Source of the DNA: a virus
UHGV virus genome: UHGV-0196356
Reading direction: 5' to 3' (one strand)
Length of the DNA: 11,600 nucleotides
Shown: one piece after another, positions 1,001-10,339 of the stretch
Layout: each line of letters opens with the position of its first letter
Position numbering within the stretch: position 1 is the stretch's first letter
Program-made: the position numbers and the translations under genes
The notes under the pieces: generated by a model
The model's database searches: none
Told to the model about the DNA's origin: nothing
What the model saw: only the letters and a program-made list of their open reading frames with translations

Positions 1001-1033
1001 GGTGCGCATAATGTACGACTCGTTATGTTGAAA
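1001..1033 (+). other. dif-like XerCD site (prophage left attachment site): GGTGCGCATAA / TGTACGACTCG / TTATGTTGAAA
   Basis: Exact 11-bp XerC-binding arm of E. coli dif followed by TGTA, then a divergent and longer spacer and an XerD-arm-like sequence matching 9 of 11 positions of TTATGTTAAAT. The 15 bp GGTGCGCATAATGTA is a direct repeat with 10312-10326. Confidence 0.6.
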
Positions 1034-1067
1034 AGGCCGCTGCGAAAATCGAATCCCGCAGCGGCCT
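1034..1067. terminator. Intrinsic terminator hairpin downstream of minus-strand gene D (possibly bidirectional)
   Basis: Perfect inverted repeat AGGCCGCTGCG (1034-1044) / CGCAGCGGCCT (1057-1067) with a 12-nt loop; T-rich tract follows on the minus strand (reverse complement of 1028-1033). Confidence 0.5.
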
Positions 1068-1100
1068 CTTTAGCATAACGTCATTGTGCGAACCAATTTT

Positions 1101-1874
1101 TTACTTATTAAGTTCACTAAGTTTTGCTGGGTTAAGCCTGTAAATTATACAGAATATGGCAAATAAGCCAGCGGTACTAATACCAAAACCATATTTCTCA
1201 AATGTTAATTCAACAAAACCCGGATAGCTAATTAGCAAGCCGGGGATACTTATGCTAAATAATGTTCTCAATACGAAATATTGCATCCCACTTGGTTTTT
1301 TTATAAACAAGCAAGCAATAAATACCAATGAACTAAAGCACAGGCCTATTACTAATGGTATTTGTACTTTGTCACCTATGAAATAAGCAGATAAAAAGAC
1401 AATTATAGCAACTATAATCACCCCAACTGCTAATGCTATTTTCACTGGATCTACCTTCTCTTTATTGTCAAACCCAAATGTCGGCAAGTTATTGTCATGC
1501 AATAATCCTCTTAACTTTTCTGATTTTTCTTTTCCGCAGTATGCTTTAACCATCCTCTGCATCCCGGAGTAAGCTGTTTCACTTGGGGATATGGTTTGAT
1601 CATTTACATCAATCCTGTAACGCTGATAATGTTCAACAAGAAGCTCTATCACATCATGACATGTTTCCGCAATCCATTGATTCCATGAGCTATTTTTCAG
1701 TATCTCATCGGAGTTATTCATTGCGCAACATTGCTCTAGATAATTACATAGTTGCTTCATTGATTTATCAGCATCATTTAGATTTTTTGTTTCCTCATAA
1801 TTATTAAGGTCTTGGCAATATTTTTCATATAGAGCATTAACCTTTTCCTGCTGTTGAGTTATTCTTTGTTGCAT
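1101..1874 (-). CDS. Hypothetical membrane-anchored protein D (257 aa): Cys-rich soluble N-terminal domain of about 150 aa plus four predicted C-terminal TM helices
   Basis: Long ORF. Hydrophobic segments KIALAVGVIIVAIIVFLSAYFIG, IPLVIGLCFSSLVFIACLFI, FVLRTLFSISIPGLLISYP, GISTAGLFAIFCIIY. Seven Cys in the N-terminal domain. Followed by a terminator. No family recognised. AT-rich codon usage. Confidence 0.6.
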   Translation of the reverse strand: MQQRITQQQEKVNALYEKYCQDLNNYEETKNLNDADKSMKQLCNYLEQCCAMNNSDEILKNSSWNQWIAETCHDVIELLVEHYQRYRIDVNDQTISPSETAYSGMQRMVKAYCGKEKSEKLRGLLHDNNLPTFGFDNKEKVDPVKIALAVGVIIVAIIVFLSAYFIGDKVQIPLVIGLCFSSLVFIACLFIKKPSGMQYFVLRTLFSISIPGLLISYPGFVELTFEKYGFGISTAGLFAIFCIIYRLNPAKLSELNK

Positions 1875-2154
1875 TTTGTTTTTCTACTGCCTTTATGTTG
1901 TCTTGCATTTCTTTTATTTTGAATAATGCCATCTTGGCAACTGATGTATCCAAGCCTTCCATACAAGAGACAATTAACGGTTTGTGGTAAACCGAACTGA
2001 CGACTTTTAGTATGTCGCTTTCATTTGCATTACTTGGTAGAGTAGCTAGTTTACTCCATATGCTGTTTAATTGTTCCTCGGTCGGACTCCATACCTCAAT
2101 ACCAAGAATCTGTTCAAGGTCTTTTTTCATCGCTAAAATATTTGCATTTTTCAT
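1837..2154 (-). CDS. Hypothetical small protein C (105 aa), paralogous to B at its C-terminus
   Basis: ORF with an ATGA start/stop overlap with upstream B; its 3' end overlaps the D start by 38 nt. Shares the motif GLDTS[TV]AKM[MA]L..IK with B. Hydrophilic, Lys-rich tail. Confidence 0.5.
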   Translation of the reverse strand: MKNANILAMKKDLEQILGIEVWSPTEEQLNSIWSKLATLPSNANESDILKVVSSVYHKPLIVSCMEGLDTSVAKMALFKIKEMQDNIKAVEKQNATKNNSTAGKG

Positions 2155-2315
2155 TTTTTACCTTCTTTATTTGAGTTAGATACTTTCGCTTGACTTTCCT
2201 GTTCTTTTTTTATGCTATTTAGCATCATTTTTGCTGTTGACGTATCTAGGCCATCATGGACCATAACTCTCTGAGGCGTATTTTTTTTACTATCTGGCGT
2301 ATTATTATTTGCCAT
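2151..2315 (-). CDS. Hypothetical small protein B (54 aa), truncated paralog of C
   Basis: Hand-translated (below the ORF-track size cutoff): MANNNTPDSKKNTPQRVMVHDGLDTSTAKMMLNSIKKEQESQAKVSNSNKEGKK. AAGG 5 nt upstream of ATG 2315. Stop TGA overlaps the start of C (ATGA). Confidence 0.4.
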   Translation of the reverse strand: MANNNTPDSKKNTPQRVMVHDGLDTSTAKMMLNSIKKEQESQAKVSNSNKEGKK

Positions 2316-2351
2316 ATGATTACCTTTTGATCTGTGTTTTCTAGAGGTTAA

Positions 2352-2774
2352 TTACCAGTAATATGAACTTCTTCTGTGCCACCAATAAAGCAGGCTGTAT
2401 CCGACAATAAGAATCCCGAAGAACATCAGAGACATTCCCCAGCCGGTTCCGTACCACGAAACCATATCATCGAAAACTAGCCCGCCCATCTCACGTACTC
2501 CGGCAGCTTCCTTAAGAATTGGCTTGAATACCGGAATCAGAAGGGCGATCGCCAGTGGAGCACCCCAGCGAACAAGACCAGTTTCCATTTTGACCCCGAA
2601 AAAGATCCCCGCACCGACAACAAGCAGCCAGACTATCAGACCAGGCGCAGTTTCCAGTGCTGTTTGCCATTCAACATCGAAAGTTTTCATTAGCCAGGCA
2701 ACAACTGCCAGACAGAAAACAAATACGCCTATGACAACCAGTTCAACGCCGCTTGTTTCGTTATTTCTACTCAT
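2352..2774 (-). CDS. Hypothetical small integral membrane protein A (140 aa, about four TM helices)
   Basis: ORF with AAGGA 8 nt upstream of the ATG. Four hydrophobic helices (LVVIGVFVFCLAVVAWL, GLIVWLLVVGAGIFFGV, GAPLAIALLIPVF, GWGMSLMFFGILIVGYSLLYWW). More GC-balanced than B, C and D. Confidence 0.55.
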   Translation of the reverse strand: MSRNNETSGVELVVIGVFVFCLAVVAWLMKTFDVEWQTALETAPGLIVWLLVVGAGIFFGVKMETGLVRWGAPLAIALLIPVFKPILKEAAGVREMGGLVFDDMVSWYGTGWGMSLMFFGILIVGYSLLYWWHRRSSYYW

Positions 2775-2816
2775 CCTTTTGATCCTTTTTCATTGTTCAA
2801 ACTTCGCACAATAAAG

Positions 2817-2845
2817 AACGTGCAGTGTTGGTAATACTGCACGTT
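2817..2845 (-). terminator. Perfect 10-bp inverted repeat AACGTGCAGT-n9-ACTGCACGTT, a candidate terminator for the regulator gene or an operator
   Basis: Perfect palindrome arms seen directly. On the minus strand it is followed by TCTTTATT. A second short hairpin GTCTCA-tttc-TGAGAC (2847-2862) overlaps the regulator stop codon. Confidence 0.4.
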
Positions 2846-9315: not shown

Positions 9316-9355
9316 TGGGGCCGTGGCGGGTGCGTTAAGCCCCGGTATGGCCCCA
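9316..9355 (+). other. Intergenic-region imperfect hairpin immediately after gIV (terminator and/or packaging-signal candidate)
   Basis: TGGGGCC ... GGCCCCA outer stem with inner CGGG/CCCG pairing. Ff phages carry the central terminator and packaging hairpin at this position. Confidence 0.45.
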
Positions 9356-9464
9356 TCAAGAACCAGATTTTACGTCTCACCACGGAGCCTCTATATGGCC
9401 TTAAAACTGACAGGATATGAACAGAAAGACATCTTCTAGGTGATTCAATTACTTAGAGGTTTTT

Positions 9465-9713
9465 ATGTCTGTAAAAAGTAGGTGGCGCGATCGACTTCCC
9501 GGTGGTCGCCTGAAGTCTTACCGTCGTGTTGGTTCACATTTTACCAGTTGTTCCAGGTGGTTTGATAAATCACCGTCCTGGTATCGCAATATGATGATGA
9601 CCCGGCCAGAGCGCCGTGAAGTCAGAAAGCTTCTCAATCAGGTTGTACGTGGCCGTGACGCTGACGGCATCGCATTTCCGGTCAGCAACAAGCCATTTGC
9701 ATGGCGGTGGTGA
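9465..9713 (+). CDS. Hypothetical small basic Arg/Trp-rich protein (82 aa)
   Basis: ORF with GAGG 5 nt upstream of the ATG. Very basic (many R, K, W). Sits between the phage intergenic region and dif. Function unknown. Confidence 0.45.
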   Translation: MSVKSRWRDRLPGGRLKSYRRVGSHFTSCSRWFDKSPSWYRNMMMTRPERREVRKLLNQVVRGRDADGIAFPVSNKPFAWRW

Positions 9714-9758
9714 ACATTTTTAGCCGCTAAAACTTCATGCTGACGTAATTATCGAAAA

Positions 9759-9799
9759 CCCCGTACAGCAACAAAACTTGTTTTTGTTGCTGTACGGGG
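9759..9799. terminator. Perfect 18-bp-stem hairpin, a candidate bidirectional terminator between convergent ORFs
   Basis: CCCCGTACAGCAACAAAA-cttgt-TTTTGTTGCTGTACGGGG; a T-tract follows on the minus strand (TTTTCGAT). Confidence 0.6.
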
Positions 9800-9863
9800 T
9801 TGGCCAAGCCGCAACAGTACTCTATTTTTCTTTGGAGTTAATTGCGGCGCGGCTAGGGATGTA

Positions 9864-10109
9864 TCAGACTTTAATCTTAACTACTTTTTCAGTGCCGGTC
9901 ATAAAACTAACCAGCTTCTTGCGGCCATCGGGATACTCTTTAATGACACATCCTTCTGGCGTATTTTTTTCAGCGTAATAAATAGGGACGCCACTAAGAA
10001 GACAGGCTCGGGCTGCTTCACCGACATCATGTTCTAGTTGCTGCTCGAAAACAGTCAAGAACTCTGCTTCCTCTGATGGTGTCATTTCAGCTAGATATGA
10101 TAAGTCCAT
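9864..10109 (-). CDS. Hypothetical small acidic protein (81 aa)
   Basis: ORF convergent with 9465-9713 and terminated at the 9759-9799 hairpin. Acidic composition. Weak RBS. No family recognised. Confidence 0.4.
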   Translation of the reverse strand: MDLSYLAEMTPSEEAEFLTVFEQQLEHDVGEAARACLLSGVPIYYAEKNTPEGCVIKEYPDGRKKLVSFMTGTEKVVKIKV

Positions 10110-10311
10110 AAATGCTCATGCCTTCTGTAATTCATTGCTTAGTAACAATGATGAACAGGCCTGATTGGTGAGGTCAGGCTGTTCACTTACTGCTGACAGA
10201 CATTTGATTCTGATTCGTTTGGAGAAACGGATGATTTTGAATCATTGTCGATAGTAACCAGTTGACGGCCAGTGTCAACGATTCCCGCCAGATTCTGCCA
10301 TCCTTACCATT

Positions 10312-10339
10312 GGTGCGCATAATGTATATTATGTTAAAT
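10312..10339 (+). other. dif: dif site (XerC arm, 6-bp central region, XerD arm); prophage right attachment site
   Basis: Exact match to the E. coli dif consensus GGTGCGCATAA TGTATA TTATGTTAAAT. Confidence 0.9.

Follow-up and report, generated by a model that had tools for sequence, protein, structure and literature searches.

A probable CTXΦ-type filamentous prophage at Escherichia coli dif, assembled from YpfΦ-like and UPΦ-like modules

Filamentous Phages That Integrate at dif

The dif site is essential for chromosome segregation, and mobile elements exploiting Xer recombination are known as IMEX. Filamentous phages of dif may carry fitness or virulence cargo, including cholera toxin in CTXΦ and the modest rise in virulence that comes from YpfΦ and CUS-1. 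CTXΦ lacks a secretin of its own and uses the host protein EpsD, whereas the phage described here encodes gIV. The virus genome UHGV-0196356 was analyzed as one stretch of 11,600 nucleotides (the window), and its segment 1001-10311 is a 9311-bp temperate filamentous phage of the Inoviridae with IKe/I2-2-like virion genes. The element is very probably a CTXΦ-type IMEX that entered the chromosomal dif site of Escherichia coli through a folded attP and host Xer recombination, and a mosaic of YpfΦ- and UPΦ-type phages.

CUS-1 of E. coli O18:K1:H7 and YpfΦ of Yersinia pestis are long-listed filamentous phages that integrate at dif (PMC2731167, PMC4266046), and both YpfΦ and CUS-1Φ are grouped under the CTX type in a review table (PMC4246890). 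YpfΦ occurs in two to four tandem copies, and its XerC/XerD sites are inverted (PMC4266046). The UPΦ phages (Shapiro & Putonti 2020, Virus Evol 6:veaa030) combine an IKe/I2-2-like core with dif integration and tandem repeats, and their gII and gV are >85% identical to those of YpfΦ (PMC7307601). They comprise 229 complete prophages in E. coli, Salmonella, Klebsiella, Citrobacter, and Y. enterocolitica, are ~98% identical at the amino acid level even for the most distant members, and are placed provisionally in Lineavirus by their authors (PMC7307601). I2-2 and IKe, in contrast, are episomal (PMC7307601). An earlier, sequence-only reading of the window had called an Ff-like genome at dif notable, a view that does not hold given that CUS-1, YpfΦ, and UPΦ were already published (PMC4266046, PMC2731167, PMC7307601). 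The element is a new mosaic member of a published phage group and no new phenomenon, and it adds little to the principle of dif integration.

The locus resembles CTXΦ in several ways: both have an attP(+) that folds from two inverted dif-like sites, both rebuild a functional dif at one end of the prophage, and both occur in tandem; in each, the regulator gene diverges from the gene for replication, and cargo genes lie at the ends of the genome. It differs from CTXΦ in that there is no sequence homology between the two, and their hosts and receptors are not the same.

Insertion Site and Host Flanks

The attachment features of the window are as follows.

1001-1033, + strand: attL, equal to attP half-site 1, GGTGCGCATAA-TGTACGACTCG-TTATGTTGAAA
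1000-1095, + strand (viral strand): folded attP(+) hairpin, half-site 1 paired with half-site 2
10312-10339, + strand: attR, a perfect dif of functional type, GGTGCGCATAA-TGTATA-TTATGTTAAAT

The repeat GGTGCGCATAATGTA occurs just twice in the window, at 1001-1015 and 10312-10326 on the + strand, and two or more matches were found in 0 of 200 dinucleotide-preserving shuffles. The right copy extends to GGTGCGCATAATGTATATTATGTTAAAT at 10312-10339. This is the sole match in the window to the 28-nt E. coli dif with up to three mismatches allowed, and it is perfect; the identical 28-mer is the single dif of K-12 MG1655 (NC_000913.3, 1,590,750-1,590,777). Against E. coli K-12, the window flanks show 95-100% identity. 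On the left, window 877-1015 covers the 3' end of hipA, a further 76 bp, and the first 15 nt of dif, and on the right, window 10309-10509 is 100% identical to dif and the sequence downstream of it. Because both flanks align to K-12 in this manner, taking out 9311 bp restores the K-12 empty site. The hipA stop codon TGA lies at 922-924, with the dif core 76 bp beyond.

These results bear out the claims of the sequence-only reading about the site: a direct repeat at 1001 and 10312 (exactly two copies, on the same strand), a perfect 28-bp dif on the right, and an insertion 76 bp past the hipA stop where K-12 has dif. The reconstruction of an empty site, which it had proposed as a check, was positive, with a single dif regenerated by the deletion. 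The absence of an integrase gene was also confirmed, as scans of the 16 open reading frames (ORFs) with Pfam, PHROG, and PADLOC found no integrase, recombinase, or transposase family. The arrangement is that of a CTXΦ-type IMEX, with a functional-type dif regenerated on the right and a hybrid site with an 11-bp spacer on the left.

The host genes around dif are decayed relative to K-12 (window 1-1000 and 10340-10700). The left flank has lost part of the yneO autotransporter gene, hipB, and most of hipA, which is a remnant stub in the window, through three clean deletions whose junctions lie at 617, 728/729, and 877. In the right flank, a 2.65-kb deletion removes yneL, ydeT, ydeS, and ydeR, and ydeQ therefore stands close after dif. 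The decayed flanks are not an artefact of one assembly, because identical flanks are present in an independent JGI assembly.

Tandem Copies and Present Activity

The whole window is contained, letter for letter, in a 136-kb contig from a human-gut metagenome (ENA ERZ917174, run SRR413694). A contig of JGI 3300055680 (L010), found through the exact ORF257 protein, carries two head-to-tail copies of 9311 bp with 0 mismatches to the window and with flanks identical to the window's. Its two copies are joined by ...ccttaccatt-GGTGCGCATAATGTA-cgactcg..., which is a reconstituted attP. A second E. coli with intact hipA (ERZ16007972) has two copies of a 9107-bp variant (2 × 9107 bp, L011/L012), and a tandem triple was seen in the UPΦ case-study strain ECONIH2 (CP014667), which is among the matches. 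Tandem arrays are formed by both YpfΦ and UPΦ (PMC4266046, PMC7307601) and serve as the template for virion DNA in the CTX model (PMC4246890).

A Logan contig from SRR413694 is 9327 bp long and runs from one base before the core to the last core base. Since a 15-bp repeat alone leaves a k = 31 assembly graph unbroken, the branch at both ends of this contig points to a phage-phage junction in the reads of the same sample. The single copy in the window may accordingly reflect assembly collapse.

Another explanation, which concerns present activity and not arrival, is that a past Xer integration left a fixed remnant that no longer produces phage. Such an inactive fossil would suit the single copy in the window's assembly, the decay of the adjoining host genes, and the many E. 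coli genomes that match the core only partly, but it is improbable in view of the state of the element. All eleven identified phage genes are intact, the window copy agrees without a mismatch with the tandem pair of another assembly, and the assembly graph points to a phage-phage junction in the same sample. Unrelated strains whose flanks differ (APEC E19057, LSN03-016011/A) encode proteins 99-100% identical to those of the element, and DNase-protected DNA of the related UPΦ901 is released into culture supernatant (PMC7307601).

The Folded attP

The left site is the complete phage attP, a pair of inverted half-sites with the layout of a CTXΦ-type Xer substrate. Half-site 1 consists of a perfect XerC arm GGTGCGCATAA, an 11-nt spacer TGTACGACTCG that opens with the same four nucleotides, TGTA, as the central region of dif, and, matching at 9 of 11 positions, the XerD-like arm TTATGTTGAAA. 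Half-site 2 is an inverted, degenerate copy at 1061-1088 with the reverse complement GGTTCGCACAA-TGACG-TTATGCTAAAG. The half-sites are separated by a 12-nt loop and a GC-rich extension stem of 10 bp, in which 1035-1044 pairs with 1057-1066. The earlier statement that the left copy keeps only the XerC arm was correct as to the perfect XerC arm and incomplete as to the rest, as it left out the spacer, the XerD-like arm, and the inverted partner. The phage-phage junction in the tandem copies has the same sequence as attL.

Folded as single-stranded DNA (ssDNA), + strand 1000-1095 forms one hairpin of −29.2 kcal/mol with a z score of −7.5, and 0 of 200 shuffles were as good. In silico, the XerC arm and the XerD-like arm of this hairpin are both rebuilt as duplexes, with a bulged central region between them. 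A covariance model from eight family members was matched in ~30 of 65 related loci, where the hairpin lies on the strand coding for gII. In a 12-sequence alignment of the hairpin, 96.5% of cells are paired and three pairs show compensatory changes, compared with 28-48% pairing in slid controls; for each of five measures, the observed value was not reached by any of 500 shuffles. Variation clusters in the bulge and loop, and the Brenneria variant also mends a G·A mismatch and a T·G wobble of the XerC-arm duplex. Relatives whose gII is only ~46% identical (L060, L062, L067, L073, and L074) have the same forked hairpin, with arms TTCGCATAA/TTATGCGAA and unrelated extension stems. The CTX-type folded attP is thus kept across a much wider set of phages with this gII family.

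These properties bear on a VGJΦ-type IMEX, in which the double-stranded replicative form carries a conventional attP, recombination with dif is reversible, and the prophage is excisable. The duplex 1001-1033, with its perfect XerC arm and its XerD-like arm matching 9/11, could be read in this way, and VGJ-type elements likewise give such a direct-repeat structure (table, PMC4246890). A VGJΦ-type origin is nevertheless very unlikely, because the arms are 11 bp apart compared with 6 bp in dif, and because a duplex attP needs neither the inverted partner nor the extension stem, two features that are kept, with compensatory changes, and found again in distant relatives. In addition, the closest relatives YpfΦ and CUS-1Φ are classed as CTX-type (PMC4246890).

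The 3' two-thirds of the attP hairpin (window 1024-1095) also match ~480 plasmids at ~93% identity. These plasmids are mostly from E. coli, and 425 of them are conjugative. In the copy on pLD91-1-146kb (L079 4001-4071; NZ_CP042586.1 15645-15715), the 5' arm is degenerate, and the hairpin lies between efflux genes and a minus-strand gene of the 'STM4504/CBY_0614 family'. The plasmid hairpin looks like the fossil left end of a dif-type phage, comprising hairpin and cargo gene, that became fixed on plasmids.

Crossover Point and Proposed Integration Mechanism

Markers in two relatives indicate the origin of each XerC arm. In Y. pestis NCTC5923, the attL XerC arm is GGTGCACATAA and the phage-phage junction is GGTGCGCATAA, with attR outside the locus. 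In a tandem YpfΦ-type phage on a Klebsiella pneumoniae plasmid, the attL XerC arm is AGTGCGCTTAA, and the junction and attR are both GGTGCGCATAA. The attL XerC arm therefore comes from the host and the attR XerC arm from the phage. This distribution places the exchange point at or within TGTA, adjoining the XerC cleavage position. It is in keeping with exchange by XerC and speaks against a TLC-type reaction, in which XerD would act first. A TLCΦ-type IMEX, whose attP has no real XerD site and in which XerD performs the first exchange upon activation by a phage XafT-like factor, is scarcely credible, since the degenerate XerD-like arm (9/11) that would suit it is set against Pfam scans of the element's ORFs that turned up no DUF3653/XafT-like protein and against crossover markers at the boundary of XerC arm and central region, away from the XerD side.

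The K. pneumoniae plasmid (NZ_CP132684.1; L080, 4497-23532) is of the IncFIB/IncHI1B type and carries a tandem pair of YpfΦ/CUS-1-type phage. The pair is inserted at a plasmid dif-like site, reconstructed as AGTGCGCTTAA-TGTACG-TTATGTTAAAT. The target of integration is therefore the Xer site, whether or not it lies in the chromosome terminus.

For CTXΦ-type integration, the following mechanism is proposed. In the packaged (+) ssDNA, the inverted half-sites 1001-1033 and 1061-1088 would fold to a hairpin in which a XerC arm and a XerD-like arm flank a bulged central region. Host XerC would swap one strand pair with dif, using the 4-nt TGTA homology beside the XerC cleavage site. The XerD side would be without homology, and the junction would be resolved by replication. 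The left product would consist of the host XerC arm and phage attP, which as a duplex with an 11-bp spacer would be no Xer substrate. The right product would join the phage XerC arm to the host central region and XerD arm, giving a perfect dif that would keep host dimer resolution and let more copies integrate. Integration should be irreversible, and new virions would arise by gII-driven rolling-circle replication between the origins of tandem copies. Both XerC catalysis and irreversibility are presumed here.

Several points weigh against this reading. The window is uninformative on the crossover point because phage and host XerC arms are identical in E. coli. XerC/XerD dependence and the integration of ssDNA are carried over from CTXΦ, and the packaged strand is assumed from Ff, IKe, and I2-2. 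The covariation in the hairpin comes mainly from one divergent relative (Brenneria), together with separately folded distant sequences. The window's own assembly has one copy only, and a lone CTX-type prophage is not expected to give virions. Finally, YpfΦ transduced into E. coli remained almost exclusively extrachromosomal in the laboratory (PMC4266046).

Core Genes and Mosaic Origin

Between the repeats, Pfam and PHROG identify an intact set of genes in Ff order on the + strand (gII, gV, gVII, gIX, gVIII, gIII, gVI, gI, and gIV), in agreement with the full gII-to-gIV set of the sequence-only reading.

3483-4535, + strand: gII, rolling-circle replication initiator (Pfam Phage_CRI 1e-71, G2P_X_C 4e-34)
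4547-4864, + strand: gV, ssDNA-binding protein (Pfam Putative_G5P 1.5e-52)
4867-4953, + strand: gVII, minor coat protein (with gIX, Pfam Inovirus_G7P_2 and PHROG 28333)
4953-5048, + strand: gIX, minor coat protein (with gVII, Pfam Inovirus_G7P_2 and PHROG 28333)
5073-5315, + strand: gVIII, major coat protein (Pfam Phage_coatGP8 2e-18)
5362-6606, + strand: gIII, attachment protein (Pfam G3P_pilus-bind, Phage_Coat_A)
6606-6947, + strand: gVI, minor coat protein (Pfam DUF5455)
6948-8042, + strand: gI, assembly ATPase of the Zot family (Pfam Zot 6e-40)
8050-9315, + strand: gIV, phage-encoded secretin (Pfam Secretin, Secretin_N, GspD N0)

At the amino acid level, gII is 97% identical to Y. pestis YpfΦ, 86% to UPΦ, 57% to I2-2, and 22% to IKe, and an in-frame internal ATG at 4221 would yield a gX-like product. 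gV is 98% identical to YpfΦ and 42% to I2-2. The remaining proteins align with I2-2 and IKe, respectively, at 57% and 58% (gVIII), 52% and 51% (gVI), 64% and 65% (gI), and 74% and 71% (gIV); gIV is 27% identical to the YpfΦ secretin. gVII and gIX are 53-69% identical to their I2-2 and IKe counterparts. gIII has the IKe-type domain order of pilus-binding domain, TolA-binding N1, Gly/Asp-rich linker, and C-terminal domain, with per-domain identities of 47-75% to IKe and I2-2. By per-protein identity, M13 and If1 are further away than I2-2 and IKe, and the gII of M13 and IKe is only 22-23% identical. The label IKe/I2-2-like is therefore accurate, and the IKe-like character read from the sequence stands.

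The element shares with UPΦ the Ff gene order, virion and assembly genes like those of IKe and I2-2 with a phage-encoded secretin among them, YpfΦ-type gII and gV, a position at dif downstream of hipA, tandem arrays, and accessory genes at both ends. Relative to the ECONIH2 prophage, the attP hairpin is 99% and the 140-aa membrane protein gene 93.5% identical in nucleotides. However, the core is only 85.8% identical to ECONIH2 in nucleotides, and the proteins are 80-97% identical to those of ECONIH2 and UM146. ECONIH2 ORFs at the positions of h1 and h2, the group-defining genes between gIV and dif, gave no tblastn match in the window at E <= 0.01. The window also lacks two other left accessory ORFs ('h4' and 'h5' by position) and the small regulator of ECONIH2, and has instead a helix-turn-helix (HTH) regulator, the YpfΦ-like ORF82, ORF81, and a three-gene cassette. 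Its gII and gV are nearer to YpfΦ (97-98%) than to UPΦ (86-93%). The UM146 prophage was considered as a possible CUS-1 and rejected, as it is UPΦ-type by comparison with Y. pestis and the ECONIH2 triple.

YpfΦ and CUS-1 share with the element integrase-less integration at dif, inverted XerC/XerD sites, and tandem copies. The attP hairpin is 99-100% and the right end (10150-10326) 98% identical to YpfΦ in nucleotides. In contrast, the virion and assembly module from gVII to gIV is unrelated to that of YpfΦ, as the YPO2276-2280 type was not encountered; tblastn against YpfΦ found no match for gVII, gIX, gVIII, gIII, gVI, or gI, and only the 27% match for gIV. The regulator is 40% identical, and the left-hand cargo differs. 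Compared with I2-2 and IKe, the element has an identical gene order, the same g3p domain order, and a packaging-type hairpin directly after gIV, and its proteins are 42-74% identical to I2-2. It differs from them in that their records have no annotated attP or dif-like site, no regulator gene, and no accessory genes.

By its modules, the element is thus a recombinant of a YpfΦ-type backbone (replication genes, attP, and ORF82) and a UPΦ-type (Lineavirus-like) virion module. It also has its own regulator, ORF81, and a new left-hand cassette. Replication/attP and virion modules are therefore exchanged between both published enterobacterial groups.

Relationships were drawn from E. coli genomes, a GTDB scan, and IMG/VR. 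A megablast collection of 50,697 phage records, which does not include CUS-1, YpfΦ, or UPΦ, gave a sole match, to I2-2 (488 bp, 76%, window 6092-6579, the C-terminal part of gIII). A few complete E. coli genomes have a near-identical core, including LSN03-016011/A (99.7% in nucleotides) and APEC E19057 (96-100% per protein), as do the IMG/VR contigs L023, L032, L035, L038, and L040. Of 5426 complete E. coli genomes, 52 carry a Lineavirus-like core at >=80% coverage. About 110 further E. coli genomes match less fully, most of those listed only in gII-gV, which is the pattern that CUS-1-type prophages such as that of UTI89 would give. A literature search found no paper naming this lineage.

Four enterobacterial phage contigs (L015, L017, L018, and L020) lie in GTDB metagenome-assembled genomes labelled Ruminococcaceae, Aerococcus, Bacteroides, and Candidatus Nanosynbacter, and one of them has E. 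coli hipA-dif flanks. They presumably represent binning contamination.

Regulator, Accessory Genes, and the Left-Hand Cassette

The genes outside the core are as follows.

1101-1874, − strand: ORF257, N-terminal helical bundle and C-terminal membrane domain
1837-2154, − strand: ORF105, PHROG 6502 (E 7e-11), 61% amino acid identity to the Cedecea plasmid cassette
2151-2315, − strand: ORF54, cassette gene, 77% amino acid identity to the Cedecea neteri plasmid cassette
2352-2774, − strand: 140-aa membrane protein, PHROG 4174 (E 1e-82), family-wide accessory gene
2863-3315, − strand: HTH (Cro/CI-type) regulator, divergent from gII, Pfam HTH_3 and PHROG 3557
9465-9713, + strand: ORF82, basic accessory protein, 84% amino acid identity to the same-position ORF of Y. 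pestis YpfΦ
9864-10109, − strand: ORF81, accessory protein, PHROG 21003 (E 4e-55), 100% amino acid identity in APEC E19057

The regulator matches PHROG 3557 'transcriptional regulator' with E 1e-68, and its Pfam HTH_3 match (E 7e-4) is under the gathering score (20 vs 23 bits). It is 98-99% identical to proteins of the APEC E19057 and Klebsiella spallanzanii loci and 40% identical to the YpfΦ regulator. By its position, it is a candidate repressor and the putative counterpart of RstR. The 140-aa membrane protein has counterparts with 95-96% identity in YpfΦ-type viral contigs and in the prophages of UM146, ECONIH2, and APEC. In the ECONIH2 UPΦ prophage, the match is a 140-aa ORF at the left accessory position, called 'h3' here solely on account of its place. 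ORF82 is absent from UPΦ, and ORF81 is absent from both UPΦ and YpfΦ.

The cassette ORF54-ORF105-ORF257 (1101-2315) was found in 0 of 5426 complete E. coli genomes. It is 79% identical in nucleotides to a three-gene cassette of a Cedecea neteri conjugative plasmid (L003 6001-7272) and 98-100% identical in amino acids on the gut contig L015 (~140-1400), whose other genes are YpfΦ-type. At the corresponding position, several related loci, chiefly of the UPΦ type, have paralogues with 31-35% identity. Sequence and structure searches gave no informative match for ORF257. ORF105 and ORF54 have a common C-terminal GLDTSxAKM motif (EGLDTSVAKMALFKIKEMQ vs DGLDTSTAKMMLNSIKKEQ, window 1837-2315), which suggests an internal duplication inside the cassette. 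The three genes move as one unit between plasmid and phage contigs, and the accessory region that holds the cassette on the Cedecea neteri plasmid also carries a GNAT/DUF1778 toxin-antitoxin pair and a gene with a TIR domain.

The left end is a hot spot for swapping uncharacterised cassettes that plasmids carry too. The presence of the cassette in both phage lineages and on conjugative plasmids, with 31-35% identical paralogues at the same position, would fit a diversifying exclusion or defence module. It is tentatively conceivable, though rather doubtful, that the element represents a third, unnamed enterobacterial lineage of dif-IMEX inoviruses that arose by recombination of YpfΦ/CUS-1 with UPΦ and carries a mobile, diversifying cassette of membrane-protein genes for superinfection exclusion or defence. 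If the cassette is such a system, this would be the most useful outcome of the element.

Other Hairpins and Promoter-Like Signals

Three further hairpins lie outside the attP region.

2816-2852, + strand: hairpin GAACGTGCAGTGTTGGTAATACTGCACGTTTGTCTCA with a 13-bp stem, candidate (+)-strand origin or gII recognition site
9312-9359, + strand: long imperfect hairpin from the gIV stop, candidate packaging (morphogenetic) signal
9757-9801, + strand: perfect 20-bp hairpin, family-conserved, ~83% nucleotide identity in YpfΦ and UPΦ

The first hairpin coincides with a 38-nt stretch (window 2816-2852) that is 92% identical to the major intergenic region of I2-2 (L004 2666-2703) and is the sole non-coding similarity to that phage. 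It is also kept in YpfΦ and UPΦ, with 94% nucleotide identity to YpfΦ over 2794-2863, and the fold of 2790-2865 has a z score of −5.1. It is a candidate (+)-origin or gII recognition site because all four phages share this gII family. The intergenic region between gII and the regulator (3316-3482) was rejected as an origin, since it has no unusual ssDNA structure (z +0.3).

The hairpin at 9312-9359 (fold of 9305-9470, z −4.0) stands where I2-2 (2260-2330) and IKe (6141-6196) have their annotated morphogenetic signals, and its loop motif GGTGCGTTA is in common with I2-2; it is a candidate packaging signal. The fold of 9700-9870, which includes the perfect hairpin, has a z score of −7.2, and a terminator and a (−)-strand origin are both candidates for its role.

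A scan of the element for promoters and terminators was at or below chance expectation. Its best σ70-like match, in a scan overall not above chance, is TTGACA-16-TACTAT (10/12) at 10251-10278 on the − strand, leftward toward ORF81. A 45-codon ORF begins inside the att core (10183-10320, − strand), and the 160 bp around it are 98% identical in YpfΦ although the adjoining genes differ.

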